Shown: positions 1 through 64,000, counted from the stretch's first letter. The stretch is DNA of 64,000 bases from a virus (IMGVR_UViG_3300034069_000533:1947-65946), one strand, 5' to 3'. The notes: generated by a model not told the origin, from the letters alone. A program made the numbers and translations.

Positions 1-2
1 TG

Positions 3-497
3 ATGGATGGACGCCGGCTTATCTTCATTGTGGAGGAATTACGGTTTCTGCTGCCGAAGCCGGAATTTACACAGCCGTTTGAAGATATTTTGCTGACCGG
101 ACGAAAGAAAAACGTTTGCTTCTGGCCGGTAATCCAACAGCCTGAGCATCTGTTGACGCACCCGATTGGTACGGCGTTGCTTGGTCAGTGTCGCACGCGG
201 TTCCTGTTTAAGAATGAGCTTGCCAACCGGGCGGCGTACTGCGGCGGGGGCAGCTATGGCGACGGACTGCACGCAACTCCGCAGATTTACCAACAGGTCC
301 GCGAGGGCATGACAACCGGCAAGTGGTCGTTCGTTCTGCAACGGCCAGGAAAAAACTTGCTGTGCCGCTTTGATTTATCTTCAATGCCGGACGCGCTTGC
401 TGTATTCTCAGCGATGCCCAAGAGCATCGCGCTATGGGATAGCATTGCTGAAACCCGGCGCGAGTTTTTAGACAGACTTGACGAAGCAAAAGCTTAA
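3..497 (+). CDS. virB4: VirB4/TrbE-family T4SS ATPase, C-terminal part (5' truncated by window)
   Basis: DGRRLIFIVEE...GRKKN...IQQP...QCRTRFLFKN...RFDLSSM..LAVFS follows the VirB4 C-terminal pattern (DGRP.I..IDE..RKKN..TQ..QC.T..F.N..LDLS.M..LAVLS); lies upstream of other virB genes. Confidence 0.85.
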   Translation: MDGRRLIFIVEELRFLLPKPEFTQPFEDILLTGRKKNVCFWPVIQQPEHLLTHPIGTALLGQCRTRFLFKNELANRAAYCGGGSYGDGLHATPQIYQQVREGMTTGKWSFVLQRPGKNLLCRFDLSSMPDALAVFSAMPKSIALWDSIAETRREFLDRLDEAKA

Positions 498-514
498 AGA
501 GAAGGATAAAATAA

Positions 515-688
515 ATGAAAACGGACAAAGAGCGCATTGCGGAGCTAGAGACAGCATTGCGTATGATTTCTGTTTCTGCTGAGACAGCGCAGTTTGAAGA
601 CGCTATTTACACCACGCCCAAGCAATCGCTTGAAAGCCTGTGTGAAGGAATCCGAAAGAAAGTTAAGGAGACGATGAGCAATGGCTGA
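515..688 (+). CDS. small hypothetical protein (57 aa, MKTDKERIAELE...)
   Basis: ATG at 515 after GAGAAGGA RBS; stop overlaps next start. Confidence 0.6.
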   Translation: MKTDKERIAELETALRMISVSAETAQFEDAIYTTPKQSLESLCEGIRKKVKETMSNG

Positions 689-1037
689 TACCTTACCGCC
701 CGCCCCTTCGCTTATGGTCCGGCCAACTCCGGTGCCTGCCGAGGTTGAGGCGGCGATTGCCGGTTTGCGCACGGCTTGCGACAAGTGGCCGCGCGTATCT
801 GCCGACACGCTGACTGACGCTCAGGCGCGACCGAATTATGCCAACGCTTACTGCGAGGCGGCGCCCGATATTAGTTATTCGTTTAGCGAGGCTGGTTATA
901 TTGGCATTGCTTACGGCGTAGCTCTGGCAATTTTTGGTTATGTAATTTTGCATATGACAATGGCGCTGCTTAATGGTGCTGTCGCTGTGGTCCGTCATGT
1001 GTGGAATAATCGGCAGGAGAAGCACGATGCGGCTTAA
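681..1037 (+). CDS. hypothetical membrane protein
   Basis: ORF with one long hydrophobic segment, coupled to neighbours. Confidence 0.6.
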   Translation: MADTLPPAPSLMVRPTPVPAEVEAAIAGLRTACDKWPRVSADTLTDAQARPNYANAYCEAAPDISYSFSEAGYIGIAYGVALAIFGYVILHMTMALLNGAVAVVRHVWNNRQEKHDAA

Positions 1038-1290
1038 GGCAAGCGGCGCGTACAGCTTCGGTGAGTCCAATACCATGAGCCTTGAGGATGCGGCGGAATC
1101 CGTTTGCCGTGACTTTGGTAGGGATTTATCACTAGAGCGCACGGCGCAAGCGTTCGCGCGACTGGTCAATACCCTGCATTCGCGTGGGCTGTTATCCAGT
1201 TCTGAAATTGAGCAAGTTTTAAACTATGAATTTCAAGTTGTGGAGGGTTGGGCAGATGCGCAAATGCGCGATCATGGCAAGCTTGGCTAA
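1027..1290 (+). CDS. hypothetical protein
   Basis: ATG at 1027 after GGAG; overlapping operon arrangement. Confidence 0.55.
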   Translation: MRLKASGAYSFGESNTMSLEDAAESVCRDFGRDLSLERTAQAFARLVNTLHSRGLLSSSEIEQVLNYEFQVVEGWADAQMRDHGKLG

Positions 1291-1495
1291 CCTGTTGCTG
1301 ACAGCGCAAGCCGACGCGGCGTTGCAGCCCTATGAAGTGGTTTGCGGAAACTGCCCGGCCATAACCGTTGCCGAGATTAACGAAGCTGCCAGGACGGTTG
1401 AGGCGCTGAAAAAGCAGTTGGAGGATTACAACAGGCTCTTAACTGAATACACCAAGCAGCTTGAAACCGTGACAAGGCTAAGGCTAAGGCAATGA
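1274..1495 (+). CDS. hypothetical coiled-coil protein
   Basis: ATG at 1274; stop overlaps virB5 start (ATGA). Confidence 0.5.
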   Translation: MASLANLLLTAQADAALQPYEVVCGNCPAITVAEINEAARTVEALKKQLEDYNRLLTEYTKQLETVTRLRLRQ

Positions 1496-2223
1496 GCGTT
1501 AGAATGATGTTATTGGCGGGCGTGGCTGGCATTGCGCTGGCCTCGCCCGCGCGTGCGCAGTGGATTGTTAATGATCCAATTAACACGCTGGTTGCGCAAA
1601 CTGCTTGGGTAAAGCAGGCTGCCGATATGATCCGGCAGATTGAGGAAATGCAGCGGCAATACCGCATGCTTTCCAGCACCTATAATGCGATTTCCCACGC
1701 GACCGATATTAGCGGTGTGGCGTCAGCGCTTGGTGGCGTTACTCGCACTTACCTGCCGGAAGCCTCTGGCGCCCTGTCGCTGGTCGGGCAGGGCTCGCGT
1801 CTGCTGAGCGGTGCGGGGCGCATTCGCAGCGCTGACACGCTGTTTATGCCGCAAGCCGCCTCTGGCATTCGCTCGCTGGATCGCTGGCGGGATGAAATGG
1901 AGCGGCGGCAGAACGTGACCGCCAATGCCAAGGCGCTGGCTGAGGCCGGCATGATTGACATGGAGCAACGCATAGCCGGGCTAGGTGGCCTACAGGCTGA
2001 GATTAACCGCTCTAGGGACGGCACACAGAGCGCCGCCTATACCAACGCCATCGCGGCCAGCCGGACCAATCTAGAGGCCCACAACGCCAGCGTGGCCAAT
2101 CTGCGGCTGGCCTTGGCGGCGGCGGATCGGACTGACCGCGAGCGCGAGGAACAGATAGCGGTACAGGGCGCATCCAATTGGATGGATGATACGGCTTGGG
2201 CGGTGGAAAGCTTGGGACGTTAA
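1492..2223 (+). CDS. virB5: VirB5/TrbJ-like minor pilin
   Basis: Signal peptide then AQWIVNDP...QAADMIRQIEEMQRQY...YNAIS helical pattern; position between virB4 and virB6. Confidence 0.8.
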   Translation: MSVRMMLLAGVAGIALASPARAQWIVNDPINTLVAQTAWVKQAADMIRQIEEMQRQYRMLSSTYNAISHATDISGVASALGGVTRTYLPEASGALSLVGQGSRLLSGAGRIRSADTLFMPQAASGIRSLDRWRDEMERRQNVTANAKALAEAGMIDMEQRIAGLGGLQAEINRSRDGTQSAAYTNAIAASRTNLEAHNASVANLRLALAAADRTDREREEQIAVQGASNWMDDTAWAVESLGR

Positions 2224-2250: not shown

Positions 2251-2406
2251 ATGGTTTATGTTAATTTTGCTATCTGCTACGCTCTGGCTGTTATTGTTAC
2301 CTACGCTTTCATTATGTTTTTAAATGAATTGGAGGATATTAGACATGCGTTCGATTTTTTGCGCCGCGATCCTCAGCCTTTGCTTATTCCAGAGCGCGAA
2401 GGCTGA
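2251..2406 (+). CDS. small hypothetical membrane peptide (51 aa)
   Basis: ATG after AAGAAGGA RBS; overlaps next gene. Confidence 0.4.
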   Translation: MVYVNFAICYALAVIVTYAFIMFLNELEDIRHAFDFLRRDPQPLLIPEREG

Positions 2407-2719
2407 AGAATTCGATATTAATTGGTTTGTCAGAAACACAGCGGCGCGCATGGAGGCATTGCAGCTATGCCGCGACGATTACCGCAAGGTGCAGTCGCCA
2501 CGCACCGGCCCGATTTGCGCCAACGCTGAGGCAGCGCAAACTCGGCTATTCGCGCGAGAGCAAGGCTCAGCCTTTGGCTTAATGGATCGCCCGGCTTATT
2601 GGGTCCAAAATCCAGAAATGAGCCAGTCCGTTCTTACGGCTTGCGCTCGCCGCGCGTCTTATGACCAACACCTGTTGAGGTATTGCAATGTCGTTAGAAC
2701 CGCGCAAAGCATGAGGTAG
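2345..2719 (+). CDS. entry-exclusion-like exported protein (EexN-like)
   Basis: Signal peptide plus WF...AR..L..C......C.NA..A motif; sits between virB5 and virB6 as eex does in IncN/IncW plasmids. Confidence 0.5.
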   Translation: MRSIFCAAILSLCLFQSAKAEEFDINWFVRNTAARMEALQLCRDDYRKVQSPRTGPICANAEAAQTRLFAREQGSAFGLMDRPAYWVQNPEMSQSVLTACARRASYDQHLLRYCNVVRTAQSMR

Positions 2720-2721
2720 CC

Positions 2722-3639
2722 ATGCCTTTAACCACATACCAGCAATTCTATGCGCAATATGATGTAGCTATTCGTTCGGGCGCTGATGAAGCGACGGCTG
2801 CGGGATTGCGTTGGGTTGCTGGCGTTTTTCCGGCGATAATAATTCCGGTTATTATTGTCGCTGGTCTGCTTCTGGCTTGGGGGCTACTAGATAAGGGGCG
2901 CATATTCCAATACGGCGGCAGAGCCGCGATTGTAATTTACTTGGTAATCAGTCAAGCGTTTGTGCCGATTGTTCGGGACAATATTATTGACGGCGTTCCG
3001 AACGAGATTGCTAGCGCGATTAACGGCAACGGTAGCCGGATAACCGCAGTTGAGCAATTTGACCGACTGGACCAAGCCAGCGGGTATTTTACCGCCAGAG
3101 TTTTAGGGCAGGCAACCGGAATTTCCCAAATCGGCAACAAGATTGCCGCTTGGGCGGCGCGTGGCTTTCAGAAATTCTTTTTGGAGGCAACGTTTGTAAT
3201 CTGGATGGGTGTTCGGATGCTGACGCACATCGCTGTTGCCTTGCTGGCTTTCTCGCTAGTGTTTTTATTAATGCAAAGCACTTCGCAATGGGTAATGGAA
3301 CAGCTTGGCAAGATCATTGGCTTACTGTCCTGGCAAATTGCCATGTCCATTCTGCTAAAGGTCATGCTGACCGGGACTGAGGTATTTTTGCGTGAGACGC
3401 TTGTGCGCGGTCAAGGCATGTCCATTGAGCAGCAGGTTGACGTTTGCTTTGATATTGCTGGCTGGTTTTTTGCCTGCTTCGTGTTGGTGCTGATGGTGCC
3501 TAGCATTATCGGTGTTGGTGCAGGCGCCGCAACCTCCTCGCTCATTGCATCTGGCGCCATGGTCAACGCTGGCCGAATGTTTGTTAACGCTGCGAACAAG
3601 ATGGGTCGGGCGGCGCACGCGATGCGCCGCCGCCGCTAG
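2722..3639 (+). CDS. virB6: VirB6/TrbL polytopic membrane protein
   Basis: Multiple TM segments, 305 aa, canonical position. Confidence 0.8.
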   Translation: MPLTTYQQFYAQYDVAIRSGADEATAAGLRWVAGVFPAIIIPVIIVAGLLLAWGLLDKGRIFQYGGRAAIVIYLVISQAFVPIVRDNIIDGVPNEIASAINGNGSRITAVEQFDRLDQASGYFTARVLGQATGISQIGNKIAAWAARGFQKFFLEATFVIWMGVRMLTHIAVALLAFSLVFLLMQSTSQWVMEQLGKIIGLLSWQIAMSILLKVMLTGTEVFLRETLVRGQGMSIEQQVDVCFDIAGWFFACFVLVLMVPSIIGVGAGAATSSLIASGAMVNAGRMFVNAANKMGRAAHAMRRRR

Positions 3640-3708: not shown

Positions 3709-4338
3709 ATGAACAAGTTTGTGGCGCCCGTGACGCGCGAGAATCTGCATAGCTTTAAGCTGTTTAAAGTTATTGAGAAGAACAGTGTTTCCGTCGTCGG
3801 TAGCATTTATCGTCTAGCCGAGGACGACGGCAGCAAATGTCCATGGTTTACGCATGTAAGCGGCCCAAGTAATAGTCTTTATCCCCGGCCTGCAATTTCT
3901 CTTTATATGCTTGCCGGGATTGTTGAAGACCAATCCGACGCCAATCTTGCGCTTCAACAGGCGCGTGAGGCGCTAGACGCGGCAGAACGCGCCGTTGCGC
4001 TGGGCTCGGCAGGCGATTGCCAATGCTGGGAGTGCGCTCGCATGAGCGCGCATACTCCTGGCCCGTGGTTGTTTTTTGCAACTGACGGAATTAATGTAGG
4101 CGTAACCACGGAATCCGCAGACATTGCGCATTGTCATGGTTTTTATAAGCCTCGCCGCAGTTGGAATGAAGAAGTCGCCAACGCAAAACTTATGGCTGCT
4201 TCGCCTGATTTGTTAGAGGCTTTGCGTGAAGCTGTGGAATTTGCTGACCAAGATTATCAATGCCTGACTCCGACCGGGCGCAAGATGGTTGATGGTTGGA
4301 AGGCGGCGATTGCAAAAGCAGAAGGCAACACTGAATGA
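3709..4338 (+). CDS. phage hypothetical protein, apparent two-gene fusion
   Basis: C-terminal half HTPGPW...ANAKLMAASPDLLEAL...AIAKAEG is a common phage small-protein pattern; GGGAG precedes in-frame ATG at 4042. Confidence 0.65.
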   Translation: MNKFVAPVTRENLHSFKLFKVIEKNSVSVVGSIYRLAEDDGSKCPWFTHVSGPSNSLYPRPAISLYMLAGIVEDQSDANLALQQAREALDAAERAVALGSAGDCQCWECARMSAHTPGPWLFFATDGINVGVTTESADIAHCHGFYKPRRSWNEEVANAKLMAASPDLLEALREAVEFADQDYQCLTPTGRKMVDGWKAAIAKAEGNTE

Positions 4339-5051
4339 GCGATGACGGATTAACCCCGGAGGAAATTCAGCGCAGCAATGAAGTTGCTGCGCAGTACGTT
4401 GCCATGGATCGCGCCCGCACCCGACGCGAGACGATGAAGACGCTGGCGCTGATCGCGTGCGTCCCATCGGCGGCAAGCGGTTGGGTAATGTGGGCAACGA
4501 AGCCGCGCATTCAGCGCGAGGTTGAGTTTATCCCCATTACGGAAAATGGCGTACCGGCGCTAGCCTATCGGCTGGAAGACTTGCCACCCGAAGCGCGCAA
4601 CGATGCGGCGTTTACAACCGTATGGAATTACGTCTGCTTGCGTGAGGAATACTCATGGGGCATGGCGGAAAAGGCTTATCGCATTGTCTCGCTCATGTCC
4701 GATGATCGCGTAATGAACGAATATCAGGATTTAGTTAATATTAAAAATAAAGAAAGTCCAACGGCTGTCTATGGCCGCGACGCAGTGATTAGCATTGACT
4801 ATGACAGTCACGATGATCTTTCGCCGCCAACCGGATATTCCGGCCCGCCGCCGGGTTACTCCATCCGGTTCCGCCGCACGGTAACATGGCTGAATAAGCC
4901 ACCGGAGCGCGAGCTTTGGATGTGTTCGGTTATGTTTCATCGCAATGTGCCGAAGGTTGATATTCGCCAGAGATACGAGTTTAGTCCGCAATCTATCGTG
5001 GTTTGGCAGTATCCCGGCGCCCGTCCGATTACACCACTGAGAAGGAGATAG
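4335..5051 (+). CDS. virB8: VirB8 inner-membrane T4SS protein
   Basis: Single TM then YVCLREEYSW...Y..V.LMS...V..EY...N..SP pattern. Confidence 0.8.
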   Translation: MSDDGLTPEEIQRSNEVAAQYVAMDRARTRRETMKTLALIACVPSAASGWVMWATKPRIQREVEFIPITENGVPALAYRLEDLPPEARNDAAFTTVWNYVCLREEYSWGMAEKAYRIVSLMSDDRVMNEYQDLVNIKNKESPTAVYGRDAVISIDYDSHDDLSPPTGYSGPPPGYSIRFRRTVTWLNKPPERELWMCSVMFHRNVPKVDIRQRYEFSPQSIVVWQYPGARPITPLRRR

Positions 5052-5282: not shown

Positions 5283-5480
5283 ATGTCTAGTTTTGTTTTT
5301 GGTGTTGGTGTCGGCAATCTCGCCATGGCGCTATTCATTCATGCCGCGACTTCGGTTTCGCGCATCAAGCCTACATGCACGGCGGAAGATCATGAGATTT
5401 CGCGCATGATTGGCGCGAAACTCGGTTGGTTCGGTTTGATGCTTATGGCTGCTGTCTGGAAGGAAGGAATTTTTACATGA
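5283..5480 (+). CDS. small membrane protein
   Basis: Hydrophobic ORF, AAGGGA RBS; stop overlaps next start. Confidence 0.55.
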   Translation: MSSFVFGVGVGNLAMALFIHAATSVSRIKPTCTAEDHEISRMIGAKLGWFGLMLMAAVWKEGIFT

Positions 5481-6127
5481 ACCCGGCCCGCGCTGCGCTT
5501 CTGGCCAGCGCCGCATTTATGTGTATGGCGCTGACTGAGCCTCAGCCCATCCCCGGCGGTGACGTGCGTTACCGCACGGTAGAGTGGCGAGACGGTATTG
5601 TTATTCAGGCTTTCGGCTCGCGCGGCAAAACCATTCTGTTTGAATTGCCGCGCGGCGTTGATGCCGTTGATATTCTGCCGTCCGACCAAGACGTAATAAC
5701 GGGAAAAGTGGCAGAGGCAAGCGGCGTTACCGGCCGGGGTGCCGCCAATCAACCGGACGCGCCCGAAGGCTGCATTGAAACCGCCAACATGCAGATTTGC
5801 ATTAAGAATGATCGGTTTATTGGTATCAAACCAAAGACCGAGCTTCAGGCGCAGCCCATTCCAGTAATGATGGTAAGCGGTGTTAATGGGGCGAATCCGG
5901 TTGAGCGGCAATTCGTTATTGAAATCAGCACAACGGACACGCCTTATTATGTGGTTCGGGTGACGGTGCCGCAGCCCGTGCCCGTACAGCCTCGCCAGCC
6001 GGTTGTCCGGCGGTGGCCAACACAGCCCCGCCCGCCGGTCGCCGCGCCTCCTGTGGAGCTTCCGCCGGTCAACAATGCCTACTCCATCACGGGTGATAGG
6101 GCGCTTTTGGGAGTGCAGGGACGATGA
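5477..6127 (+). CDS. virB9: VirB9 N-terminal part (split gene)
   Basis: Signal peptide, D.RYRTVEW..G.V....G..G.T..F pattern, Pro-rich linker, ends at NNAYSITGD (start of the VirB9 C-terminal domain). Confidence 0.65.
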   Translation: MNPARAALLASAAFMCMALTEPQPIPGGDVRYRTVEWRDGIVIQAFGSRGKTILFELPRGVDAVDILPSDQDVITGKVAEASGVTGRGAANQPDAPEGCIETANMQICIKNDRFIGIKPKTELQAQPIPVMMVSGVNGANPVERQFVIEISTTDTPYYVVRVTVPQPVPVQPRQPVVRRWPTQPRPPVAAPPVELPPVNNAYSITGDRALLGVQGR

Positions 6128-6480
6128 AGCTAGCCATTCTGGCCGGGGCGCTGGTTTTGGCCGCATGTTCCAGCACCAAGCCGTTGGTTGCGCCGCCATG
6201 CCCGGAAGGCGAGGGCGCGGCGCTGAATGCCGAGGGTCCGGCCCCGGTTGTTTGGGACAACGCGCATTGGACGTTTCTGCGCTTTTCCGGGCATCAATCC
6301 TTCCCGAAGGTCACAGCATTGCGGCCAGACGGCAATGAGCGCGACGTATCTTCTTCGCCCAATCCTGACACCGGCATTATTACCGTGCATGGCGTTTTTC
6401 CAACGTTGGTTTTGCGCGAAGGCGAGCGTGTTGCCTGTGTTAAAAACAATGCGTTTGATCCTTATGGTAAGCGGCCATAA
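6124..6480 (+). CDS. VirB7-like lipoprotein fused to VirB9 C-terminal domain
   Basis: Lipobox LAAC15, PPC26..LN as in VirB7, then P.VWDN..WTFLRF...P.V...DG.E..V...VHGV...VLR.G..VAC105VKN typical of the VirB9 CTD. Confidence 0.7.
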   Translation: MKLAILAGALVLAACSSTKPLVAPPCPEGEGAALNAEGPAPVVWDNAHWTFLRFSGHQSFPKVTALRPDGNERDVSSSPNPDTGIITVHGVFPTLVLREGERVACVKNNAFDPYGKRP

Positions 6481-6698
6481 TGGATAAAGAAAAGCGCGTT
6501 ATGGCAATTGCTAAGGAAGTTGCCGAGGCTGCGTTATCTGGCGCGGTTGATCGCGTGCATAATCTTTCGCTGCAAGACAAGCTGATTTTGCTTGGTCTTG
6601 ATCCCGAAGATTATGCAATTGTGCTGCGACAGCAGGAAGGCGCCGATGAGCCGCTAAGTTGGAAAGACTGGCTAGATTTCGCAGAGAGGGAAAAATGA
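6480..6698 (+). CDS. hypothetical protein
   Basis: TAATG/ATGA overlaps with both neighbours. Confidence 0.55.
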   Translation: MDKEKRVMAIAKEVAEAALSGAVDRVHNLSLQDKLILLGLDPEDYAIVLRQQEGADEPLSWKDWLDFAEREK

Positions 6699-7741
6699 GC
6701 GAGAATAATGACGACAAGTCAGTAAATGACGGCAAGCCAACCGGGTTCATGGGCAGCGGTAGCGGCGCCGGTTATATTTTGGCTGCCATTGGCGCCGCCG
6801 CTGGCTTGGCGTGGTTCATGTGGGGTGGCCCTAGCCGGGCGCCGGCCCCGCAGGAGGCAGGACAGGTGCGGCCGGGCACTCCGGGGCGCCCGTTCGTGCC
6901 GCCTCCCCCGCCAGCGCAGGCAGAGGCGCCGCGCGATCCGCCGGCCGATCCACGCCCTAGAGACGCGGGCGAGGGCGCAGGACGGCCCCGCGCCTCGCCT
7001 ATGGTGCTGAGCGTCCGGCGCGAGCGCCCGGCCCCTACGGGCACGGCTGCGCAGCAGGAACCGAAGCCAGAGACGGTGGCGGGCATGCCGGTGCTGACTG
7101 CCGACATGGTAGCCGACGCGGAAAACTTTCTGATGCCGGGTGACAAGCTTTCCTGCCTCAGCGCTGAGCCGTTGGAAGGCAAGGCGGATGGCGTGGCGTT
7201 TACCACAGAAATTAATGAAGATTTTATTGGGCGCGGCAATGCATGGCCTCCGCTTATTCCTAAAGGCTCTCTTGCATTTGGCCGGGTGTCACGCGTGGCA
7301 GAGGATGGCGACGAACGTATTGCCGCCGCGCTGACGCTTATTCGCGGCCCGTCCGTCATTGGGCGCCCGACCCTCATGGTGCCGCTTGGCGATGCGCAGC
7401 CGGGCGAGCCATTAGGCGACGCTGGATTGCGCGCCAATGTCGAGACGCGGTTTTGGGCGCGGCTTGGCACGGTTGCCGCTTACGCTGGTCTAGATGCGGT
7501 TGGCCGGATCGGGTCCAGCTTAGCCGGTAACGCCATCAATGAAGGCTTAAGCGGCGGTGGCCGGACTAATATCAATGTCGGCAATTTCGGCGGCATGGCA
7601 TCCGGCCGGTCGCTAGCCGGATCAGCATTCGATCATGAGCTAAGGCGCGGCCCGCGCTTGTCGCGCCCGCAGGCGCAGCCCTGCACTATCTTTATCACCA
7701 AGCCAATTCGCGTGCGCGGCACGCCACAGCGCGGGAGATAG
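6695..7741 (+). CDS. virB10: VirB10/TrbI T4SS core protein
   Basis: N-terminal TM, Pro-rich stalk, L.PG..L.C...LIPKGS..G...G.AG....V..RFWAR domain, P.L..PQ.....I...KP.. end. Confidence 0.85.
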   Translation: MSENNDDKSVNDGKPTGFMGSGSGAGYILAAIGAAAGLAWFMWGGPSRAPAPQEAGQVRPGTPGRPFVPPPPPAQAEAPRDPPADPRPRDAGEGAGRPRASPMVLSVRRERPAPTGTAAQQEPKPETVAGMPVLTADMVADAENFLMPGDKLSCLSAEPLEGKADGVAFTTEINEDFIGRGNAWPPLIPKGSLAFGRVSRVAEDGDERIAAALTLIRGPSVIGRPTLMVPLGDAQPGEPLGDAGLRANVETRFWARLGTVAAYAGLDAVGRIGSSLAGNAINEGLSGGGRTNINVGNFGGMASGRSLAGSAFDHELRRGPRLSRPQAQPCTIFITKPIRVRGTPQRGR

Positions 7742-8409: not shown

Positions 8410-8919
8410 ATGCATCCTGATTTGGCTAACACGGGCGCCGCTGCTGTGGCGTCCAAGCCGGTGCCGCTGAAGGCGCGTGGCTTTGCGGCTATCGGTCTGT
8501 TTATGCCGAAGTCGGACGTAAACGTTGGCGGTGCCTGCCGGGCGGCGGATTGCTATGGCGCATCCATGGTGGTTGTGCAGGGCCATCGCTATTGGAGCAT
8601 GGCCACCGACACAACCAAGATGCATCGCCATATTCCGCTGATTAACACATCAGGCGATGTGTTTGACCATATGCCATATGATTGCGTGCCGGTGGGTATT
8701 GAGCTTTGCGACAATGCAGAGTCACTGGTTACGTTCAAGCATCCTGAGCGGGCATTTTATATCTTTGGCCCGGAGGATGGCTCACTTGGTAAGCGCGTGC
8801 TGGACCGCTGCAAGCACCGGGTAATGGTGCCAACGAATACCTGCATGAATCTCGCGGCAACCGTGAATGTTGTTCTGTATGACCGGCTAGCCAAGCAGCA
8901 TGTCAAGCGCATCGGGTAA
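8410..8919 (+). CDS. SpoU/TrmH-family (SPOUT) RNA methyltransferase
   Basis: NVGGACRAADCYGA, VGIEL, YIFGPEDGSL, VP...CMNLAATVNVVLYDR motifs. Confidence 0.85.
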   Translation: MHPDLANTGAAAVASKPVPLKARGFAAIGLFMPKSDVNVGGACRAADCYGASMVVVQGHRYWSMATDTTKMHRHIPLINTSGDVFDHMPYDCVPVGIELCDNAESLVTFKHPERAFYIFGPEDGSLGKRVLDRCKHRVMVPTNTCMNLAATVNVVLYDRLAKQHVKRIG

Positions 8920-9259
8920 AGCCTACCGGCAAATTCGCTGGAATTGGCTGCTTAAGGAATGGAATGGCCGCTGCGCATATTGCGGCGGCGTTCCTACTAC
9001 GGAAGACCATATAATTCCCCGCAGCAAAGGCGGCAAAGATGCATGGTGGAATGTTATTCCAGCCTGCCAGCCTTGCAACCAAGCCAAGCGGGATATGAGC
9101 TTGCGGGAGTTTCTGGAGGACAAAAAGAAGATTTACAAGAGAATTATTGCATGGCGTCAGAGTTTGCCAAAGGCGGCGCCGTTTAGCAACATCATAACGT
9201 ATGACGAAGTTGTAGAAGCGAGGATGCAAAAATATGACCGTTTCCGACGCTATCGCTAG
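8900..9259 (+). CDS. HNH endonuclease
   Basis: CAYCG...EDHIIPRSKGG...N..PAC..CN..K. Confidence 0.9.
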   Translation: MSSASGKAYRQIRWNWLLKEWNGRCAYCGGVPTTEDHIIPRSKGGKDAWWNVIPACQPCNQAKRDMSLREFLEDKKKIYKRIIAWRQSLPKAAPFSNIITYDEVVEARMQKYDRFRRYR

Positions 9260-9260
9260 C

Positions 9261-16159: not shown

Positions 16160-16161
16160 GC

Positions 16162-16190: not shown

Positions 16191-16216
16191 GGTGTCGTTG
16201 AGAAGGAAGCAGGCAA

Positions 16217-49131: not shown

Positions 49132-49146
49132 TAATTTATCCTTTAA

Positions 49147-49413: not shown

Positions 49414-49429
49414 TTAATTATCCCTTATA

Positions 49430-52917: not shown

Positions 52918-52918
52918 T

Positions 52919-53272: not shown

Positions 53273-53919
53273 GGCTTAGGCGCTCCGCTTTGGCCCTGGC
53301 CGGGCTGCACAAGGGTATGGACGTGATTCTTGAGGCTGACCGTACCAGCTATCACGTCACCTTTCACCTTGGCGTCGCCATCAACATAAATCGTTCCGGT
53401 ATAATATACGTCGCCCTCTGGCGTGATGCGCCAATGCCCGCCTGCGGTCTGCATCCGCCCCTCGCCACTAGGCTTCAGGATCAGCCGCACCGGCCCGAAG
53501 AAGAATTCGGCGTTGTCGGGATCGGCGGATATGCCGGTTGCTTGCAGTCCGGGCGTCGCCACGGCATCCGATAGGTCATGCTGGCGCCCATCATCGGGGG
53601 CGTCATTCGAGCCCTCTAGCCAGCCTTCTAGGCTGCGCTGTGCGAAGTCCAGTTTGACGCCATCGCCCGCCTGCATCGGCAGGGTAAACCCGCACCTCCC
53701 ACCCATCGTCAGCGGCCAGACAATCGGCACTTTGTAGAGGTCGGGCGCGGGCAGCGGATCGCCACTGGCCAGCCGCTTTGGCAGGCTCGGCGTCACCGTC
53801 GCCCGGTTTTCCTTGGCATCATAGGACTTCAGAACGCCCGGAGCGCTGGTATTGATTTCTGCGGTGTGCGTCTCCATCGCATTTTGCAACGCTTTAATTA
53901 AATCGCTTTCTTCCGACAT
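53269..53919 (-). CDS. baseplate central spike (Gp138-like)
   Basis: T..PG....YD....A.V.P, VP...P, GD.V.L.F..RS...W, R.HDLSDA, SL..H.H. Confidence 0.88.
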   Translation of the reverse strand: MSEESDLIKALQNAMETHTAEINTSAPGVLKSYDAKENRATVTPSLPKRLASGDPLPAPDLYKVPIVWPLTMGGRCGFTLPMQAGDGVKLDFAQRSLEGWLEGSNDAPDDGRQHDLSDAVATPGLQATGISADPDNAEFFFGPVRLILKPSGEGRMQTAGGHWRITPEGDVYYTGTIYVDGDAKVKGDVIAGTVSLKNHVHTLVQPGQGQSGAPKP

Positions 53920-53928
53920 TTATTTATC

Positions 53929-54996: not shown

Positions 54997-55312
54997 ATAA
55001 ATCAGCTTCCGAAAGATACAGTATGGCCGCGCTACCGTTAACAAAGGAATAGCGATCCAGCACTACGCCCTTGTTGCAATCAACATAAATTTCGCCCGGC
55101 GGAAACTCTGGCTGCCTTGTCTGAAACAGCAGCGGCCAGCGTGGAATAACCATCATGCCAGAGCAAAGCACGGAGAAATTAAGATCGCGCAAACTCATAG
55201 TCCAGAATTGCGCAAGTTGATTCCATGACAAGCCGATGATGTATTGTCCATCGTCAAGCGTTGCTTCAATAATCATATCGTTAGCATCAATGGGAAAAAT
55301 CTGCTGCGCCAT
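54989..55312 (-). CDS. baseplate plug-like protein
   Basis: LD...Y...L.WN....W. Confidence 0.7.
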   Translation of the reverse strand: MAQQIFPIDANDMIIEATLDDGQYIIGLSWNQLAQFWTMSLRDLNFSVLCSGMMVIPRWPLLFQTRQPEFPPGEIYVDCNKGVVLDRYSFVNGSAAILYLSEADLYG

Positions 55313-55314: not shown

Positions 55315-56007
55315 TTACGGTCCAAGCCCGAAGAAGCTTCTGGTCGCGGTTCTGGCCGCTTGTATTCTTTCGTCACCAACGGCCCTTTGCCCGCTTTTTA
55401 TGATTGATCGGCCATTAGGATTTTCCGGCTGCGTCGGCTGAGTATTGGCATTGTTATTGCCGGATGGCGTGGTTTTGCCGGCCGGCTTGTTCGTCTCGCC
55501 CGCACGCCCGGAGGCGTCGCCCGACACGTTTTCCGGCGGCGGCACGTCAGCGCTTTTTAGCTTGACTTTGGTAATCTTGGTTAATTCAACGGTTAACTGC
55601 AACCAATTACCGCCATCACCATCCGACGAACGAACGGCATTCATTCCAGAAAATGCAAAATCTTTATACAGAATTTGTCCGGTATTAATCTCAACTAACG
55701 CTCGCTCTTTGTGCATCGTGCGCAGCGCTTCCACCACATCAATAAACTTCATTTCGTTTTGCTGGACTTCAACAAAACCAAATGTAGCTAGATTGGAAAA
55801 GCCGCCGGTTACGTCTTGCAAAGCAATTAGTCCGGTAACGCGTAGCGTTTCCGGCTTCAGATAAATATGATCGCTAGCTGTGGTGCCATCCTCCACCGGA
55901 TATTGCGTAACCTCTGACGGCAAATCAATTTCCTCGCGCGTCAGCACGTCAAGCAACAACGCACCAATCTTGGTGCGGCGGTCAATGGTGGAAATAATCG
56001 CGCTCAT
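55315..56007 (-). CDS. Dit-like tail/baseplate protein
   Basis: LD....E......VT.YPVEDG...SDH....P..L...G. Confidence 0.85.
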   Translation of the reverse strand: MSAIISTIDRRTKIGALLLDVLTREEIDLPSEVTQYPVEDGTTASDHIYLKPETLRVTGLIALQDVTGGFSNLATFGFVEVQQNEMKFIDVVEALRTMHKERALVEINTGQILYKDFAFSGMNAVRSSDGDGGNWLQLTVELTKITKVKLKSADVPPPENVSGDASGRAGETNKPAGKTTPSGNNNANTQPTQPENPNGRSIIKSGQRAVGDERIQAARTATRSFFGLGP

Positions 56008-57800
56008 TGCGTCGCAGCCTCAACACGCGGCATGGATACGCCTAGACCGCTGGCAAAGCTACCGCCGAGCCGGACGGCGTTCGCTTCATTGGCTCGATTA
56101 ACCCCGCTCTGTGTAGCAGAAGCGACGGAAGCCGGATCAGAGCCGGGCGCATTAACCGTAATATCATTCTGATTGGTAATGGTCTGCGACACGCCGGCGC
56201 CGTTGCGACCAATGGAGCCGGACATATCAGGAATGCGCGTATTAAATGCGCCATAATCAAAATCGCTACGGTATCCGTCAATGGCAAGTCCGCTACGCAA
56301 GCCGCCGCGACGTGGGCCAGCCGCCGCGCCCTCAGCGGTGCTAGTATCGCCACCGCCGCCCATGCCGATCTTGTCCATAAGCCAACCGACGCCAGAGCGC
56401 ACGCCGTTAAAGACAAACATCGCTTTTTCATAAAACTGCGTGATCTTTGCAATAATATTGTCAAATACGCCGGCAAAGAAATCAGCTAGCGGCGCAAACG
56501 CTACCTTCAATTGCTCAACAACGCCCGCTAACCATTCAAACTGCGGACGCATCCGCTCCATTTGTTCATTCCATGTATCCGCAATTAGCTGCGGAATGGC
56601 CATGAACCAAGCTTTAAATTCTTCAAACTTAACTTTTAAGCCGTCAAGAATTTTGGAAAATTCGCCAAAGCGATCCCCGAACAAGGAATCGCCACCACGA
56701 AGCCAAGTAATAAAATCCTCAACAATTAAAATCCATGCCAACGCCCCCACAATCGGCAGGAAGGCAACCAGCACGGCGCGACCAAACGCCATGGCGCCAG
56801 CCGCCAGCGCGCTAAACAGCGCCGGCACCGACGCCAACAGTGACGGGCCAAACAGCACGATTGCGGCGGCAGCGACAATGCGCAACACCGCTTCCAGCCC
56901 GCCAAGGCTCTGGACAAAATCACCAACAACGCGGATGCCGCTACGCCAGGAATCTAGCGTATGCGAAATATACAAAAAGATACGGGCAACTTTATCGCTT
57001 AGCCCAAGCGTGCGATCAATCTCAGCCAAAAAGCGTTTAGCAGAATTGGTCAGAATTTGATATGCACGGCTCATGCCAATAGGAAAGTTGGCAAGCTCTT
57101 TTCGTGCTGCCGCGCTTGCCTGCATCATGGCCGGCACAAACAAGTCAACCGTCATCTTTCCTTTGGTGACGGCCTCGTTGAATTCCTTGCGCGTCATGCC
57201 CAAGGCTTTAGTAATGTCATTCAGGAAGCGCGGCATATTATCGCGCAACGTATTTAATTCTTCCGCCTGAAACTGGCCAGAGCCTAGCGTCTGGCCAAGC
57301 TGGACCATGCTCTCTTTTAGATTTTCCGCGCTAACTCCTGCAACAATACCGGCAGCCTGTAAGCCTTCAATCAGGTCAACCGTATCGGTCGCCGGGCGCT
57401 TAAGCTCCTGCATCGCCATGTTAAAGCGGGTAAATGCTTGCGCGCTCTCATCCGCGCTAACGCCCGTACGCGTGCCAATCTGATAAAGTTTATCATAAAT
57501 ATCCGCTGCTTCCGTGGCGGATGTGGCGCTGCGCCCAATGCTGCTTTCAATCTGTTGCAGCGAACCGTTCATTTTGTCGCCAGCTTGAGCGATGGCGACG
57601 GGAATTCCGGCAACAGCTTGGCCAATTCCGGTGGCAATGTTGGCCATCATATTGCCAACAGCGGTGCCAACGGCTGTGCCAATAGCTACAGAGGCGGCAA
57701 CCGCGCGTCCCTGTAGCTGATTAAGCGTATTGTTAAATTGAGTGGCGCCAGCCTGATTGACTTGGAAGCCTAAGAGGGCCACTAACTCCGAGACGATAAT
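56004..57800 (-). CDS. tape measure protein (probable ATT start)
   Basis: IVSELV.LLGF N-terminus, QL.Q.LGSG..Q.EE.N...DN.P tape-measure motif; AGGAG 9 nt before ATT at 57800. Confidence 0.85.
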   Translation of the reverse strand: MIVSELVALLGFQVNQAGATQFNNTLNQLQGRAVAASVAIGTAVGTAVGNMMANIATGIGQAVAGIPVAIAQAGDKMNGSLQQIESSIGRSATSATEAADIYDKLYQIGTRTGVSADESAQAFTRFNMAMQELKRPATDTVDLIEGLQAAGIVAGVSAENLKESMVQLGQTLGSGQFQAEELNTLRDNMPRFLNDITKALGMTRKEFNEAVTKGKMTVDLFVPAMMQASAAARKELANFPIGMSRAYQILTNSAKRFLAEIDRTLGLSDKVARIFLYISHTLDSWRSGIRVVGDFVQSLGGLEAVLRIVAAAAIVLFGPSLLASVPALFSALAAGAMAFGRAVLVAFLPIVGALAWILIVEDFITWLRGGDSLFGDRFGEFSKILDGLKVKFEEFKAWFMAIPQLIADTWNEQMERMRPQFEWLAGVVEQLKVAFAPLADFFAGVFDNIIAKITQFYEKAMFVFNGVRSGVGWLMDKIGMGGGGDTSTAEGAAAGPRRGGLRSGLAIDGYRSDFDYGAFNTRIPDMSGSIGRNGAGVSQTITNQNDITVNAPGSDPASVASATQSGVNRANEANAVRLGGSFASGLGVSMPRVEAATQ

Positions 57801-57815
57801 GGCGGCGCACTCCTA

Positions 57816-57959
57816 TTAGGTTTTATTCATTGCCGCATTCTGCAATGCAATTTCATGGTCAAGCAGGCTGTTGATTTTAATAATATCTAATAGATCACAA
57901 ACGCCCGTTTTAACCTCAGTCAACGTCACCTTGCCTGCGGTAATCGGGCGCCAAACCAT
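57816..57959 (-). CDS. small tail assembly chaperone partner
   Basis: WRP...G..T..E......L.D....N.LLD; start overlaps upstream TAA. Confidence 0.65.
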   Translation of the reverse strand: MVWRPITAGKVTLTEVKTGVCDLLDIIKINSLLDHEIALQNAAMNKT

Positions 57960-58447
57960 TAATTCGGGGATAAACTCTGGCCGGAATTGCCCGACAGGTT
58001 TGCTTTCCGAAGAAGCGCCCCCGCCGGTCCAGTAGGGGACGCCAGCCGGGCTAGAACCTCCGCGAAGTTGTAAGAGACAACCGCCCAACACAACATGAGC
58101 AAATCACCGGGCGTCAGCCCGCGCCGCAACGCCTCATTGGCATCCAACTTGGATGGCTGTTCACCCGGCCCGGCAATAGAAATGCAGTTCGGATCAATCA
58201 GCACGGTCGCCAAACGCCGAAGCTCTTTGCCGTCAACCTCACCGGCTAGGTTGCTCAGCGCGGCCATAAGCTTGGCGCGGTTTTCTTCCTCGCTGCCGCC
58301 TTCCTTACCGTCAACCACGGAAAGAAATGGACGGACAAAGCGCTTTTGCAGATCACCTAAAACTTCCAGCGCATAAAACGGATCAAAGCGGCGAATATAA
58401 CAAGTATATTCGCCAATCTGATGCTCATACCGCGACAAATCAGCCAT
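57959..58447 (-). CDS. tail assembly chaperone
   Basis: Position between tube and tape measure genes. Confidence 0.7.
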   Translation of the reverse strand: MADLSRYEHQIGEYTCYIRRFDPFYALEVLGDLQKRFVRPFLSVVDGKEGGSEEENRAKLMAALSNLAGEVDGKELRRLATVLIDPNCISIAGPGEQPSKLDANEALRRGLTPGDLLMLCWAVVSYNFAEVLARLASPTGPAGALLRKANLSGNSGQSLSPN

Positions 58448-58884
58448 TAAAGATTACCACCCACGATAAAGATAGATGGCTGCGCCGTGACAAACTGCCA
58501 AGTCCGGTTGCCGATTCCGCTGCCGAAACCGATGGCCGGACGCTTGGCGATCCAAGCTTGCGCCGCCATGAACATGGTTCTACCGCGCAAATCCTGCACC
58601 ATAAAGGGGAAAATCAGCCCGCCGTTGACACCATCCGCCTCTAGCAGCCCGCTTAGGTAGTCGTTAAAAGCGGAGGTCTGCAATAGCGCCATATCAACGG
58701 TAAAACATTTGTTGGTATTCAGCGCGCGGGCAATCTCGCCATTAGCGCCAACCTTAAACGAAGAAATATCAGCGACGGGCGCAATGTTAATAAAGTTGTC
58801 TTCGTCAAGCCCGGTCGCGGGAACGCCCATAACCAAGGCTAAAACCTTGGATGGGTCGTAAGTCGTTACAACGCTGCCGCTCAT
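58447..58884 (-). CDS. tail tube protein (DUF3277-like)
   Basis: TYDP.KV, G...D.FI, VGA.GE, L.QTS..N..L, GIG.R.W.F. Confidence 0.85.
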   Translation of the reverse strand: MSGSVVTTYDPSKVLALVMGVPATGLDEDNFINIAPVADISSFKVGANGEIARALNTNKCFTVDMALLQTSAFNDYLSGLLEADGVNGGLIFPFMVQDLRGRTMFMAAQAWIAKRPAIGFGSGIGNRTWQFVTAQPSIFIVGGNL

Positions 58885-58924
58885 TGGTATAATTCCTTAA
58901 TTCTATTGGCTAGAAAATAATTCA

Positions 58925-59995
58925 TTAACCAATGTTATCGTAGGTCAGGACTCCGTCAATTACGGTTGAATGAATCGAACCGGCAAGACGGGCGCTAAAC
59001 TTAACATCACGCAAAATGCGCGCCTGCTTATCTTCCTTGGACACCGAAGATGCCAGCGGCACGGAAATGGTAAAGCTAGGAATAATAACGTTGGGGTCGT
59101 CAGCGTCGCGCTCTGGCGGGGCAATGCCTCCGCGCCGCACACCAAGGTCAAGCGCTTGGTGAATCGCCTGCCGGATCATAGCAATTCCGTCATCGGTATA
59201 CGGAATACGCCGATTGACCTTCAGGTTAAACACACGGACGCGAATTTCTTCGCAGAGCCAATTATAAAACCGGATAACGTCAATCCACTCGCCGCTAGGC
59301 GTAACGCCATTCTGCGTAATAGCGAGATTGCGGAACGTCTCGTAAGTGTTGCCGTTTTTATTCGTGATGTTGATATAAGCGCCCTCAACCATCGGCGGCG
59401 CAGTCACGCCAACAAGAGTCTGATCCGCCCAATCCTCACCGCCGGGAAGCGTTTGAAACAGCTTCGCCATAATGGCCACTTCGGGGAATTCATCGGAATT
59501 GGCGTTGTAGAACCAAAACCCCTGATCCCAAGCACTCGCCATCAGCGCGGTCGCTGGCTCATCGCCAGTCGTGGAAGTCACATCAACATCGTCAATGACG
59601 GCGCCGAAAAGCTTTTGGTTAGCCTGCGACCACGCGAAAGCGCCGGGAAGATCGGCCGGGGCGTGCGATACTTCGCAAAAGCCGTACCACTCGTTATTGA
59701 CCGCAGAGCAAGCCGCCAGCATGGCGGTAACGCTTTCCGCATTGTCGCGCCGCAGCAAATAAACCTTAGCCGGGCGCGGCTTCTGCGAAAAAGCAACCTG
59801 AAGCGCCTTATACATATCGGACGTGGTTGCGAGGCTATATGGCGCAATCAGCACGTCATCCGCATCCGTCACCACGCTAACGCGGTCTGGATGGGTAAAC
59901 ACACCGGCAAGCGCCATTTCGCTAAACGAATAGCCCTCAACGCCACGGGACTGAAGCGTAATATTAACGCGGACAATGCGATCAATTTTTGCCAC
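58925..59995 (-). CDS. contractile tail sheath protein (DUF3383-like)
   Basis: I..IV.V.I, F.Q.P.P...Y, WYG, PG...W..Q.L.GV, SGEWID, IPYTD.G. Confidence 0.88.
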   Translation of the reverse strand: MAKIDRIVRVNITLQSRGVEGYSFSEMALAGVFTHPDRVSVVTDADDVLIAPYSLATTSDMYKALQVAFSQKPRPAKVYLLRRDNAESVTAMLAACSAVNNEWYGFCEVSHAPADLPGAFAWSQANQKLFGAVIDDVDVTSTTGDEPATALMASAWDQGFWFYNANSDEFPEVAIMAKLFQTLPGGEDWADQTLVGVTAPPMVEGAYINITNKNGNTYETFRNLAITQNGVTPSGEWIDVIRFYNWLCEEIRVRVFNLKVNRRIPYTDDGIAMIRQAIHQALDLGVRRGGIAPPERDADDPNVIIPSFTISVPLASSVSKEDKQARILRDVKFSARLAGSIHSTVIDGVLTYDNIG

Positions 59996-62798: not shown

Positions 62799-62801
62799 GG
62801 A

Positions 62802-63275
62802 TTAACCCGCAATGCTCTCAGTGGACAGACGATACTTAACTAGATTGCCGCTGGCGGCGAGCGCCACGCCAGAGCGGTTAATCACTGCCAGCTTATACTT
62901 GCGCGCCTGAATTGGCACCAAAGAGCTAAGCTGTGTCTGTGCGTTAGATGCTTTGGTATTCAGAGCAATGGCAGCGTAGGGACCGTTTTGCCAACGGGCT
63001 TGGTTGCCTGCGGTCGCGCCATCATCGCCGGTCGCATAAGTGCCAGCGGTGGAAGTCTCTGGAATAAGAAAAACAATAATATTAGCGCCGTTGGTCGGGC
63101 TAAGAGCGGCTAGCGATACTTCAAATTCAGCATACAGCCACGCGCCGGCAGAGTTATCAATCTGCGGCGCGGTCAGCGTTGACGTGAATTGCGAGCCGTT
63201 GGCTAGTGAGTTTAAATCGGACGTGCCGACAGCGGCAGTCCAAGCGCCTTGGACAACTTGGCTTACAGCACCCAT
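62802..63275 (-). CDS. phage structural protein
   Basis: L.SLANG, IDNS, I.....KYK....N.SG..LAASGN. Confidence 0.6.
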   Translation of the reverse strand: MGAVSQVVQGAWTAAVGTSDLNSLANGSQFTSTLTAPQIDNSAGAWLYAEFEVSLAALSPTNGANIIVFLIPETSTAGTYATGDDGATAGNQARWQNGPYAAIALNTKASNAQTQLSSLVPIQARKYKLAVINRSGVALAASGNLVKYRLSTESIAG

Positions 63276-63291
63276 AATTATTGCGCCTTAA

Positions 63292-63711
63292 TTAATTTGG
63301 ATCATCCAACGCAACTACCATGGCAAAATCGGTCCAATTGCGCAGCCAAGCCGCGCCAATATCAACCGACTCCATAGCTCCCGCCGGATTAGATTCGTCA
63401 CTAACCACAGCGAAAGCAATGTCTGGCGCCTGCAACAGCGCCAACGCCAAGCGCCGCCGATTGATCTTCTGCTGTAACACCTTCAGCGCCAAATTCATTC
63501 GGGCGGTAATCTGCCCGGTGTCAAGCGCTGGCTCAGTTGGCTCGCCCGGCAGCAGGTTCCCACCGGATTGCAGAATGCCCATGGCAATCCGCATGCCGGC
63601 CATTTCTGCCACATCCTGCACCGCCTCAGAACGCGACGCGGCGGCAAGCTTCAGATAGGGCGGCTGGCCGGGTACGGGCGCCGCAACGGCCAACGCTTCG
63701 GTTTCGGACAT
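63292..63711 (-). CDS. hypothetical protein
   Basis: AAGGA RBS, late operon. Confidence 0.55.
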   Translation of the reverse strand: MSETEALAVAAPVPGQPPYLKLAAASRSEAVQDVAEMAGMRIAMGILQSGGNLLPGEPTEPALDTGQITARMNLALKVLQQKINRRRLALALLQAPDIAFAVVSDESNPAGAMESVDIGAAWLRNWTDFAMVVALDDPN

Positions 63712-63723
63712 AATTGCGTCCTT

Positions 63724-64000
63724 TTACGGAATTGGAATCGTCAGCGTGCTAGCCGCGACCGAGAATGTGCCGCCATTGCTGGCAATTTGGTCGGTCGTGA
63801 AATCCACATAACCAACGGCAAAATCGTTAGCGGCAGTGCCGGTGCTGACATAATAGACCAGCCCGCGTGCGGTCAAAGTCTGGCCGGCGGCAGTCGTCCA
63901 TTGCACCGCGCCAAGCTGAAACGTCAGCCGATCATTAGCATTATCCAGAGTGACAGTAACGGTTGCCGCAACGCCGCCAGTGGCGTAGCCGTTGCCCGCC
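63724..64000 (-). CDS. phage structural protein, 5' truncated by window
   Basis: TLTARG.V.Y..TGTAA..F.VGY.DF..D.....GTF. Confidence 0.65.
   Translation of the reverse strand, partial: AGNGYATGGVAATVTVTLDNANDRLTFQLGAVQWTTAAGQTLTARGLVYYVSTGTAANDFAVGYVDFTTDQIASNGGTFSVAASTLTIPIP

Follow-up and report, generated by a model that had tools for sequence, protein, structure and literature searches.

A conjugation module embedded in the genome of a large contractile-tailed phage and retained in its diverged relatives

Introduction

In reviews, transfer by conjugation and transfer in virions appear as alternative strategies whose costs, progeny numbers, host ranges and cargo limits trade off in opposite ways; the phage-plasmids known so far are defined through their genes for plasmid replication and partition, and rely on virions in place of conjugation (PMC12282955). 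Conjugation genes in phage-plasmids are reported as sporadic, their carriers being oversized and likely cointegrates or artefacts (PMC10123127; 10.1101/2025.11.07.687105). In particular, six E. coli phage-plasmids with conjugation genes are larger and have been read as cointegrates or artefacts (PMC10123127), and p1002-1, described as a "conjugative phage-plasmid", is a fusion of two recognisable E. coli plasmids (10.1101/2025.03.14.643293). Phage and conjugative functions also travel together in tandems of a phage and an ICE (integrative and conjugative element) and in prophage-carrying conjugative megaplasmids (PMC13651849, PMC12934698). Here we describe a viral metagenome sequence of 64,000 nucleotides (IMGVR_UViG_3300034069_000533:1947-65946; the whole of it is called the window below), in which contractile-tail and lysis genes share one genome with a type IV secretion system (T4SS) of the mating-pair-formation type MPF-T, the coupling protein VirD4 and a MOBF relaxase, together referred to as the conjugation module.

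By its gene content, this is a large tailed phage with a conjugation module. The explanation towards which we lean, with the scales tipped only lightly, is that a lineage of ~113-130-kb contractile-tailed phages carries the module between the early/replication and the lysis/tail genes and transfers by it. The evidence is genomic throughout.

The genome and its phage genes

The window comprises bases 1947-65946 of one 129,946-bp contig of the IMG/VR record. The ends of the contig overlap by 141 bp, which yields a circular assembly of ~129.8 kb, the window being about half of it. The record assigns the contig to the class with direct terminal repeats and gives a CheckV completeness of 100%. An overlap of 141 bp is the remnant expected from a k=141 assembler on a circular path, and therefore the "terminal repeat" is not necessarily physical. 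The GC content of the genome is 54%, and the nearest cultured relatives by the capsid protein are less than 40% identical. Megablast of both window halves against plasmid and phage collections yielded no match. The source is a plant metagenome, two runs of one sample containing 89-94% of the words sampled from 26.5-36.4 kb; there is no RNA run among the listed holders of the window's sequence.

The late operon occupies the minus strand at 35.4-63 kb and encodes an SLT-domain lysin, fibres, baseplate, tape measure, chaperone, tube-position protein and sheath:

35385..36212, minus strand: peptidase-like protein at the lysis end of the late operon (phrog_16701)
36216..37562, minus strand: SLT-domain lysin (PF01464, E 6.5e-12), with the N-terminal part homologous to GH108 lysins of relatives
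37575..50782, minus strand: tail fibre/spike genes, including an 837-aa fibre with a GH16-like C-terminus (38807-41320) and a 1084-aa fibre
50795..55044, minus strand: baseplate region with wedge proteins, homologues of the sheath initiator and the spike tip, and the hub (phrog_587, phrog_6, phrog_196)
51457..52917, minus strand: baseplate wedge
53929..55044, minus strand: baseplate hub
55315..59995, minus strand: tail core, including a phrog_817 protein
56004..57782, minus strand: tape measure
57959..58447, minus strand: chaperone
58447..58884, minus strand: tube-position protein
58925..59995, minus strand: sheath (E 3e-82)

The rest of the contig carries an intein-bearing large terminase, portal, major capsid protein and maturation protease (matching phrog_38, phrog_146, phrog_264 and phrog_530, E 1e-68 to 1e-87), as well as a head-morphogenesis protein. 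This head set, with the sheath, tape measure, baseplate, fibres and lysin of the window, characterizes a contractile-tailed (myovirus) member of Caudoviricetes. Also outside the window are replication genes (primase, two helicases, one of them Dda/RecD-like of the SF1B type, phrog_325, and a Cas4-type exonuclease) and RNA-repair, Thg1, SPFH/S49 and Acb3 anti-CBASS genes.

The secretion system, coupling protein and exclusion gene

An MPF-T type IV secretion operon occupies the plus strand at 1-15.6 kb. The full set on the genome consists of VirB1-11, with VirB9 split, an EexN-like gene, VirD4 and a TrwC-type relaxase. The operon part within the window is as follows:

1..497, plus strand: C-terminal part of the VirB4 ATPase, whose gene begins upstream of the window (813 aa in the genome)
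1492..2223, plus strand: VirB5-type minor pilin/adhesin (PF07996, E 2.7e-18)
2324..2719, plus strand: candidate EexN-like entry-exclusion lipoprotein, between virB5 and virB6 (NF033894, E 2.8e-6)
2722..3639, plus strand: VirB6 (PRK13852, E 7e-9; homologues in relatives match PF04610 TrbL)
4335..5051, plus strand: VirB8 (PF04335, E 2.5e-14)
5426..6127, plus strand: VirB9 N-terminal domain as a separate open reading frame (ORF), with no Pfam match; the true start is probably near 5477
6124..6480, plus strand: VirB9 C-terminal domain ORF (PF03524 CagX, E 1.6e-8)
6659..7741, plus strand: VirB10 (PF03743 TrbI, E 2e-11)
8410..8919, plus strand: SpoU-family methylase inside the T4SS operon (PF00588, E 7.5e-13)
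8900..9259, plus strand: HNH endonuclease inside the T4SS operon (PF14279/PF01844, E 5e-12)
9234..10226, plus strand: VirB11 ATPase (TIGR02788, E 7e-46), Walker A GETSAGKT
10561..11907, plus strand: RtcB RNA ligase, between virB11 and virD4 (PF01139, E 9e-62)
13831..15570, plus strand: VirD4 type IV coupling protein (PF02534, E 1e-78)

VirB4 is 60-63% identical to PF03135-annotated VirB4 proteins of relatives and has the Walker A motif GPSGSGKT. In VirD4, the Walker A GKG and the DE residues are invariant across the family alignment. Among the components specific for MPF-T, VirB5, VirB6, VirB8, the split VirB9, VirB10 and VirB11 match significantly; VirB2 (E 8e-5) and VirB3 (E 0.016) are matched below the cut-offs in the correct position, at the other contig end just before VirB4, beside a gene in the VirB1 position that has no Pfam match. 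The EexN match is also below its curated cut-off (27 bits, the cut-off being 33 bits), and the gene is retained at the same slot in relatives, with 26-50% identity.

The N-terminal VirB9 ORF aligns to the N-half of unsplit VirB9 proteins (hhalign 98.3%, E 1.7e-14), and the same split is seen in three relatives (L015, L017 and L097; see below). An AlphaFold model of this ORF, built from a 4-sequence alignment, had mean pLDDT 44 and was not used; the assignment was decided by hhalign instead.

The relaxase region

The second part of the module lies beyond a variable accessory region and contains the relaxase and a divergent ParA-like gene:

27018..29036, minus strand: MOBF (TrwC-type) relaxase, 672 aa (PF08751, E 1e-29)
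29036..31715, minus strand: small genes of the relaxase operon, located upstream of the relaxase, one of them for an HNH endonuclease (31149-31715)
31730..31795, no strand: array of TGTC(G/T/A)(C/T) repeats, five in close succession, separating the relaxase operon from the ParA-like gene
31887..32693, plus strand: ParA/MinD-fold protein, divergent from the relaxase operon, in a TraL/VirC1-like position
33815..34420, plus strand: conserved membrane protein accompanying the ParA-like gene and kept with it in relatives

The relaxase appears catalytically intact: tyrosines are found at residues 19-20, and in an alignment with the TrwC structure 1OMH the Asp and the H...HxH triad are matched; these residues are kept in relatives. 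It has no TrwC helicase domain. One small gene of its operon stays next to the relaxase in relatives; neither the small proteins of this operon nor the ParA-like gene has a match in NCBIfam or Pfam, and they belong to no known accessory family there. Repeat arrays similar to that at 31730-31795 are found at the corresponding site of L015 and also, in the form TGTCAC x5, of the distant relative L024, and the array is the best candidate for the origin of transfer (oriT) or a binding site of an accessory protein.

Among Atlas structures, the ParA-like protein matches ParA-like clusters with TM 0.85 and a TraL cluster with TM 0.75. Its identity to the homologues in relatives is 68%, and all members of the family have the P-loop GRGN(S/V)GGTT (here GRGNSGGTT), which is devoid of the usual lysine. 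In position the gene resembles virC1, which on Ti plasmids is divergent from virD, or TraL of IncP. The gene occurs in bacterial versions of the module too, and since the bacterial loci carry it in the same order, it belongs to the conjugation module and not to the phage. The ParA-fold homologues (L015, L017, L018, L024, L026-L041) are always divergent from a TrwC-type relaxase operon. The family may represent an unannotated relaxosome-accessory family.

Conservation of the module in relatives

VirD4 homologues with 72-53% identity are found on metagenome contigs of other runs. The most informative is the Logan contig SRR29757557_20222 (112,865 bp, read over 1-55,943), whose pieces are L022, L020, L015, L021 and L023. 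On its phage side, the order is baseplate hub, spike tip, sheath initiator, wedge, fibres, lysin and methylase; after the methylase follow the ParA-like gene, the relaxase operon and the genes from VirD4 back to VirB1; beyond VirB1 there are RTX-like and small genes, a resolvase, AAA_24, DUF669, dUTPase and a Cas4-type exonuclease. The contig is collinear with the genome, with 33-64% identity of phage proteins and 42-68% of module proteins. In particular, the fibre genes have collinear homologues in L022 and L015, and the baseplate homologues in L022 (51-64% identity) carry PF11041, PF10934 and PF18946. Both module junctions are kept in this ~50%-identity relative, and therefore predate the split of the two phages.

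Parts of the T4SS layout recur in L017 (45 kb), L018 (a 31-kb contig of an NCBI metagenome assembly), L016 and L097, which come from other samples. In L018 (GCA_040384025.1, JAWVHG010002513.1, 1-10004), the MPF genes are replaced, VirB4 being 28% identical and VirB9 unsplit, but the VirD4 typical of the clade (54%), the relaxase (41%) and the ParA-like gene (68%) are retained. The pattern resembles an exchange of the MPF module within a phage lineage; the retention of VirD4, relaxase and ParA-like gene through the swap is expected if function is under selection. The replacement VirB set includes a bL12-CTD gene and a cREC_REC gene.

A more distant contig, L024/L077 (JGI 3300062558, Ga0604455_0000019, 110,397 bp), has a complete T4SS, VirD4 with 44-49% identity, a full-length TrwC with the helicase domain and the ParA-like gene. 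It also contains long runs of 60-100-aa genes, dUTPase, dCMP deaminase and T5orf172. The 30 kb read showed no structural gene; the contig may be another phage-like carrier of the module. Protein and family-alignment queries detected no VirD4 relative in IMG/VR, and a JGI metagenome scan nothing above 45% identity, so the clade is rare in those sets. Distant relatives of the replication module (40-53% identity) are found in complete 36-55-kb IMG/VR phages without VirD4, two of which have tyrosine integrases.

Selection on the module and its origin

The ratios of nonsynonymous to synonymous substitution rates (dN/dS) were computed between the relatives L015 and L017, and are approximate, since dS is high and partly near saturation: 0.07-0.24 for VirB5, VirB8, both VirB9 ORFs (N-domain 0.07), VirB10 and VirB11; the ParA-like gene has 0.03, VirD4 0.11 and the relaxase 0.14. 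For VirB6, no estimate is given, as dS is saturated. The values, 0.03-0.26 over the whole set, indicate that the module genes evolve under purifying selection.

In the VirD4 tree, the phage-borne proteins and six metagenomic ones of unknown context form one clade of 11 with 100/100 support and a long stem, in a polytomy with clades that include Roseomonadaceae proteins. The Roseomonadaceae loci (GC 68-76%; VirD4 identity 42-46%), to which the module is closest among bacterial ones, consist of the T4SS, VirD4, an opposite-strand relaxase and then the ParA-like gene; no homologue of the capsid protein is present in five of those genomes. Members of the phage VirD4 clade were not found in the representative genomes, one each, of 185,579 species. 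As part of the explanation favoured above, and with the same slight leaning, the module would have been captured once, long ago, by the phage lineage and then kept.

Integration of the module into the phage genome

The earlier note on this stretch, based on the sequence alone, had read a T4SS, VirD4, a relaxase with YY and 3H motifs, an eex-like gene and a tail/lysis operon on one element, and matches to protein families and phrogs bear this out, with the qualification that VirB9 is split and EexN is below its cut-off. Its compositional and regulatory arguments against misassembly hold as well. TCGA avoidance, claimed for both halves, is seen in each of the five genome sectors, with observed/expected ratios of 0.22-0.44, and GTAC and GGCC are low across the genome as well. 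The tetranucleotide correlation of the T4SS sector with the four phage sectors is 0.93-0.97, the phage sectors correlating among themselves at 0.91-0.97; for the Roseomonadaceae T4SS loci the values are only 0.15-0.39.

Shared regulation is seen in the accessory region and its surroundings:

16133..27024, no strand: variable accessory ("moron") region of small genes, each with an early promoter-operator-ribosome site cassette and a GCAA-loop terminator
18098..18664, minus strand: GH16-like 188-aa protein in the accessory region
18789..19262, minus strand: RTX-repeat protein, with four 27-nt tandem units at 18926-19058
35363..35393, no strand: hairpin terminator (families D3 and D11) at the junction of the accessory unit and the late operon

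The accessory region is missing between VirD4 and the relaxase in L015 and L017. The cassette consists of TTGAC, a spacer with the palindrome TAGCGTG-N3-CACGCTA, a TAyGTT -10 element and a GAGAAGGA ribosome site, and has 35 copies above the threshold, with 0 in shuffled sequence. Eleven of them are located at 16.1-35.1 kb beside the T4SS and the relaxase, and the others in early/replication sectors, including one upstream of the primase; none was found directly upstream of virB1. The ~35 promoters with a common operator imply a regulator. GCAA-loop terminators, which had been noticed from 16 to 35.4 kb, are present in 8 copies in 16133-35393, with four more in the phage early/replication sectors. 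The junction copy at 35363-35393, reported to join the accessory and late units, sits where convergent genes ending at 35358 (plus strand) and 35385 (minus strand) meet. The pair of GH16 paralogues said to link 18 kb with 39 kb is real too: over 204 aa, the 188-aa protein shares 31% identity with the C-terminal end of the 837-aa fibre (38807-41320; E 7e-15).

Moreover, inserts of phage type (SpoU, HNH and RtcB) lie inside the T4SS operon, and the HNH protein at 8900-9259 is a paralogue (36%) of an HNH protein in the replication module.

The checks that the earlier note had proposed, namely closure of the genome, read support across the junctions and relatives with the same synteny, came out in favour of one molecule. 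The rest of the contig supplied the terminase and capsid, as well as weak matches for virB2 and virB3; both module junctions recur in the ~50%-identity relative, which is from another sample; the depth is even at ~5x over 15.7-35.65 kb, and Logan contigs bridge the 27-kb and 35.4-kb junctions, although depth and bridging data come from the probable source sample of the contig and are thus weak and not independent. Taken together, the conserved synteny, composition, shared regulation, inserts with paralogues and even depth indicate one molecule. Of the claim that one replicon can move both as a virion and by conjugation, the presence of both gene sets on one replicon stands (by closure, synteny and composition), and the dual movement keeps the status of a proposal.

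Possible function of the module and alternative explanations

Conjugative transfer is the most likely function, because the coupling protein, the intact relaxase, the relaxase-linked accessory gene and the Eex-like gene are kept together under selection. The location of the module on one replicon with the phage genes, its divergence along with them and the purifying selection on both are observed, whereas DNA transfer, the oriT, a helicase substitution and the timing are inferred. In an infected or carrier cell, the virB-virD4 operon would produce an MPF-T channel and a pilus. The relaxase would nick the phage genome at oriT (the TGTC-repeat array being the best candidate) and bind the 5' end via Tyr19 or Tyr20, and VirD4 would pass the nucleoprotein on to this channel. 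The phage genome could then enter a touching cell as a single-stranded copy, with no need for the virion receptor, the copy being completed in the recipient by the phage primase and helicases. Unwinding might be carried out by the phage SF1B Dda-like helicase instead of a relaxase helicase domain, which is speculation. The stronger version, in which two infectious routes, virion and conjugation, deliver the whole viral genome to touching cells from a phage with no recognisable lysogeny module, is put forward tentatively, its chances falling somewhat short of even.

Several observations weigh against conjugative transfer of the phage. Head genes were not seen on SRR29757557_20222, in the first 56 kb read, and this contig is not in the lists of capsid and portal homologues. 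VirB2, VirB3 and EexN are matched under the curated cut-offs, and the VirB1 candidate has no family match. The relaxases of the clade (543-672 aa) have no TrwC/TraI helicase domain, while the distant relative L024 has one. No oriT or nic site was identified by homology, the candidate repeat (iteron) array being the only one found; the P-loop of the ParA-fold protein is without lysine; and the near-saturated dS makes the dN/dS ratios approximate. In profile searches, the genome has no match to Phage_integrase, Resolvase, ParB_N, HTH_3 or Peptidase_S24, and CbiA matches only a helicase P-loop. As searches revealed neither integrase nor resolvase, ParB, canonical ParA or repressor, no stable donor state is evident, and a purely lytic cycle leaves little time for mating.

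The main alternative is that the module is functional and selected but moves no phage genome, serving instead protein delivery, DNA release, adhesion/aggregation or transfer of other DNA; the relaxase might serve phage DNA metabolism, e.g. by nicking for rolling-circle replication. T4SSs are reported to have been repeatedly recruited for non-conjugation processes (PMC3548315). The relaxase without a helicase domain fits such a role, as does the lack of lysogeny or plasmid-maintenance genes that would give a long-lived donor, and secreted-looking RTX-repeat and GH16-like proteins cluster by the T4SS both here and in relatives. However, the coupling protein, the catalytically intact relaxase and the Eex-like and ParA-fold genes occur together in every member, the bacterial Roseomonadaceae loci have the same layout, and purifying selection acts on the relaxase, which remained linked to VirD4 through the MPF swap as well. 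We therefore regard this explanation as unlikely, though still to be taken seriously.

The element could also be a temperate phage-plasmid, that is, a low-copy episome that conjugates only as a prophage, with the ParA-fold gene and the iterons as the partition locus and virions produced upon induction. This is a variant of the conjugative reading with a defined donor state. Unlike this genome, distant relatives of its replication module, complete phages of 42-44 kb, have tyrosine integrases; the ParA-fold gene and the iterons upstream of it recall the arrangement of a type Ib partition locus; a single palindromic operator is common to ~35 promoters, which would be expected of a master repressor; and relatives have small serine recombinases near the T4SS. 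Yet searches, which did not extend to plasmid Rep families, revealed neither a repressor nor ParB or canonical ParA, and thus the status of a temperate phage or phage-plasmid is not established by recognisable genes. Moreover, the ParA-fold protein, having no P-loop lysine, is part of the conjugation module in bacteria too, the VirD4 clade was not found in the representative genomes of the 185,579 species, and Acb3, RNA repair, many homing endonucleases and inteins resemble the content of virulent phages. On these grounds a temperate phage-plasmid seems rather doubtful.

Finally, an assembly chimera, or a cointegrate that a conjugative plasmid and a phage formed very recently, as suggested by the reading of such cases in the literature (PMC10123127; p1002-1 in 10.1101/2025.03.14.643293) and by a depth of only ~5x with reads from the probable assembly source, is effectively refuted and highly improbable, since both junctions are conserved in the ~50%-identity relative from another run, the oligonucleotide signature, TCGA avoidance, promoters and terminators are uniform, phage-type genes lie within the T4SS operon, T4SS and phage proteins are similarly diverged, the depth is even and contigs span the junctions.

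Other features

Small RTX-repeat proteins (HemolysinCabind, serralysin-C-like) adjoin the T4SS in at least five elements (the window, L016, L021, L025 and L097). Overlapping 12-18-nt repeats at 17990-18058 encode an Asp/Glu-rich run that ends a small gene of the accessory region. The slots for inserts in the operons of relatives vary, being occupied by DUF4379/CapR-like 400-530-aa proteins, DUF551 genes or other HNH genes. A TnpB/IS605 OrfB gene (with a Cas12f-like TNB domain) is located among the replication genes of SRR29757557_20222 (L023:14074-15321).

Outside the window, the replication/early sector contains a full-length Acb3 CBASS inhibitor (PF25187, E 1e-75; genome 105214-106044), and an SPFH/Band 7 protein and an S49 (NfeD-like) peptidase are close together at genome 100098-102704. 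tRNA-like sequences with GGGATTCGAACCC T-arm motifs are found at genome 70860-71290, ~5 kb past the window end, in a gap within the head-gene block and on the strand opposite to the late genes.

Comparison with known systems

In the literature examined, which does not cover all journals, no conserved phage lineage with an embedded, ameliorated conjugation module is described, and what is reported on conjugative tailed phages comprises only cointegrate plasmids, phage-ICE tandems and the streptococcal "conjugative prophage" reports. A conserved lineage of phages with a conjugation module looks new. If it is confirmed, the trade-off between conjugation and virion transfer becomes directly testable in one lineage, phages could bypass receptor-based resistance and spread partly independently of surface receptors, and the border between virus and conjugative element blurs. 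The classification of hybrid contigs would change, as binary plasmid/virus classifiers can misassign them. The module also represents a natural T4SS reshaped in a phage genome, with a split VirB9, a helicase-less relaxase, and homing endonucleases and RNA-repair genes in the operon.

The gene set and order are the same as in the MPF-T/MOBF systems (R388 Trw, pKM101 Tra, Agrobacterium VirB/VirD4), with the Eex gene between virB5 and virB6 and a TrwC-fold relaxase with YY and a His triad. The ParA-fold gene is divergent from the relaxase operon, as virC1 is from virD in Agrobacterium. Unlike those systems, the module studied here is located in a phage genome, has a split VirB9, a relaxase without helicase and phage-like base composition, with HNH, SpoU and RtcB genes as well as a bL12-CTD gene interspersed in its operon; genes for plasmid replication and partition are not recognised.

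As in the phage-plasmids P1, N15 and SSU5 and in p1002-1, virion genes and plasmid-type functions are combined on one replicon without an integrase. In contrast to phage-plasmids, rep and par genes are not recognised here; the module is an old one that has taken on the composition of the phage and is kept throughout a diverged lineage. In phage-ICE tandems and prophage-carrying megaplasmids, two separable elements have accreted next to or within one another, and each has an integrase and boundaries of its own, whereas here a single genome of virion size carries the module between phage modules, and the adjacent accessory genes are on the phage promoter cassette.

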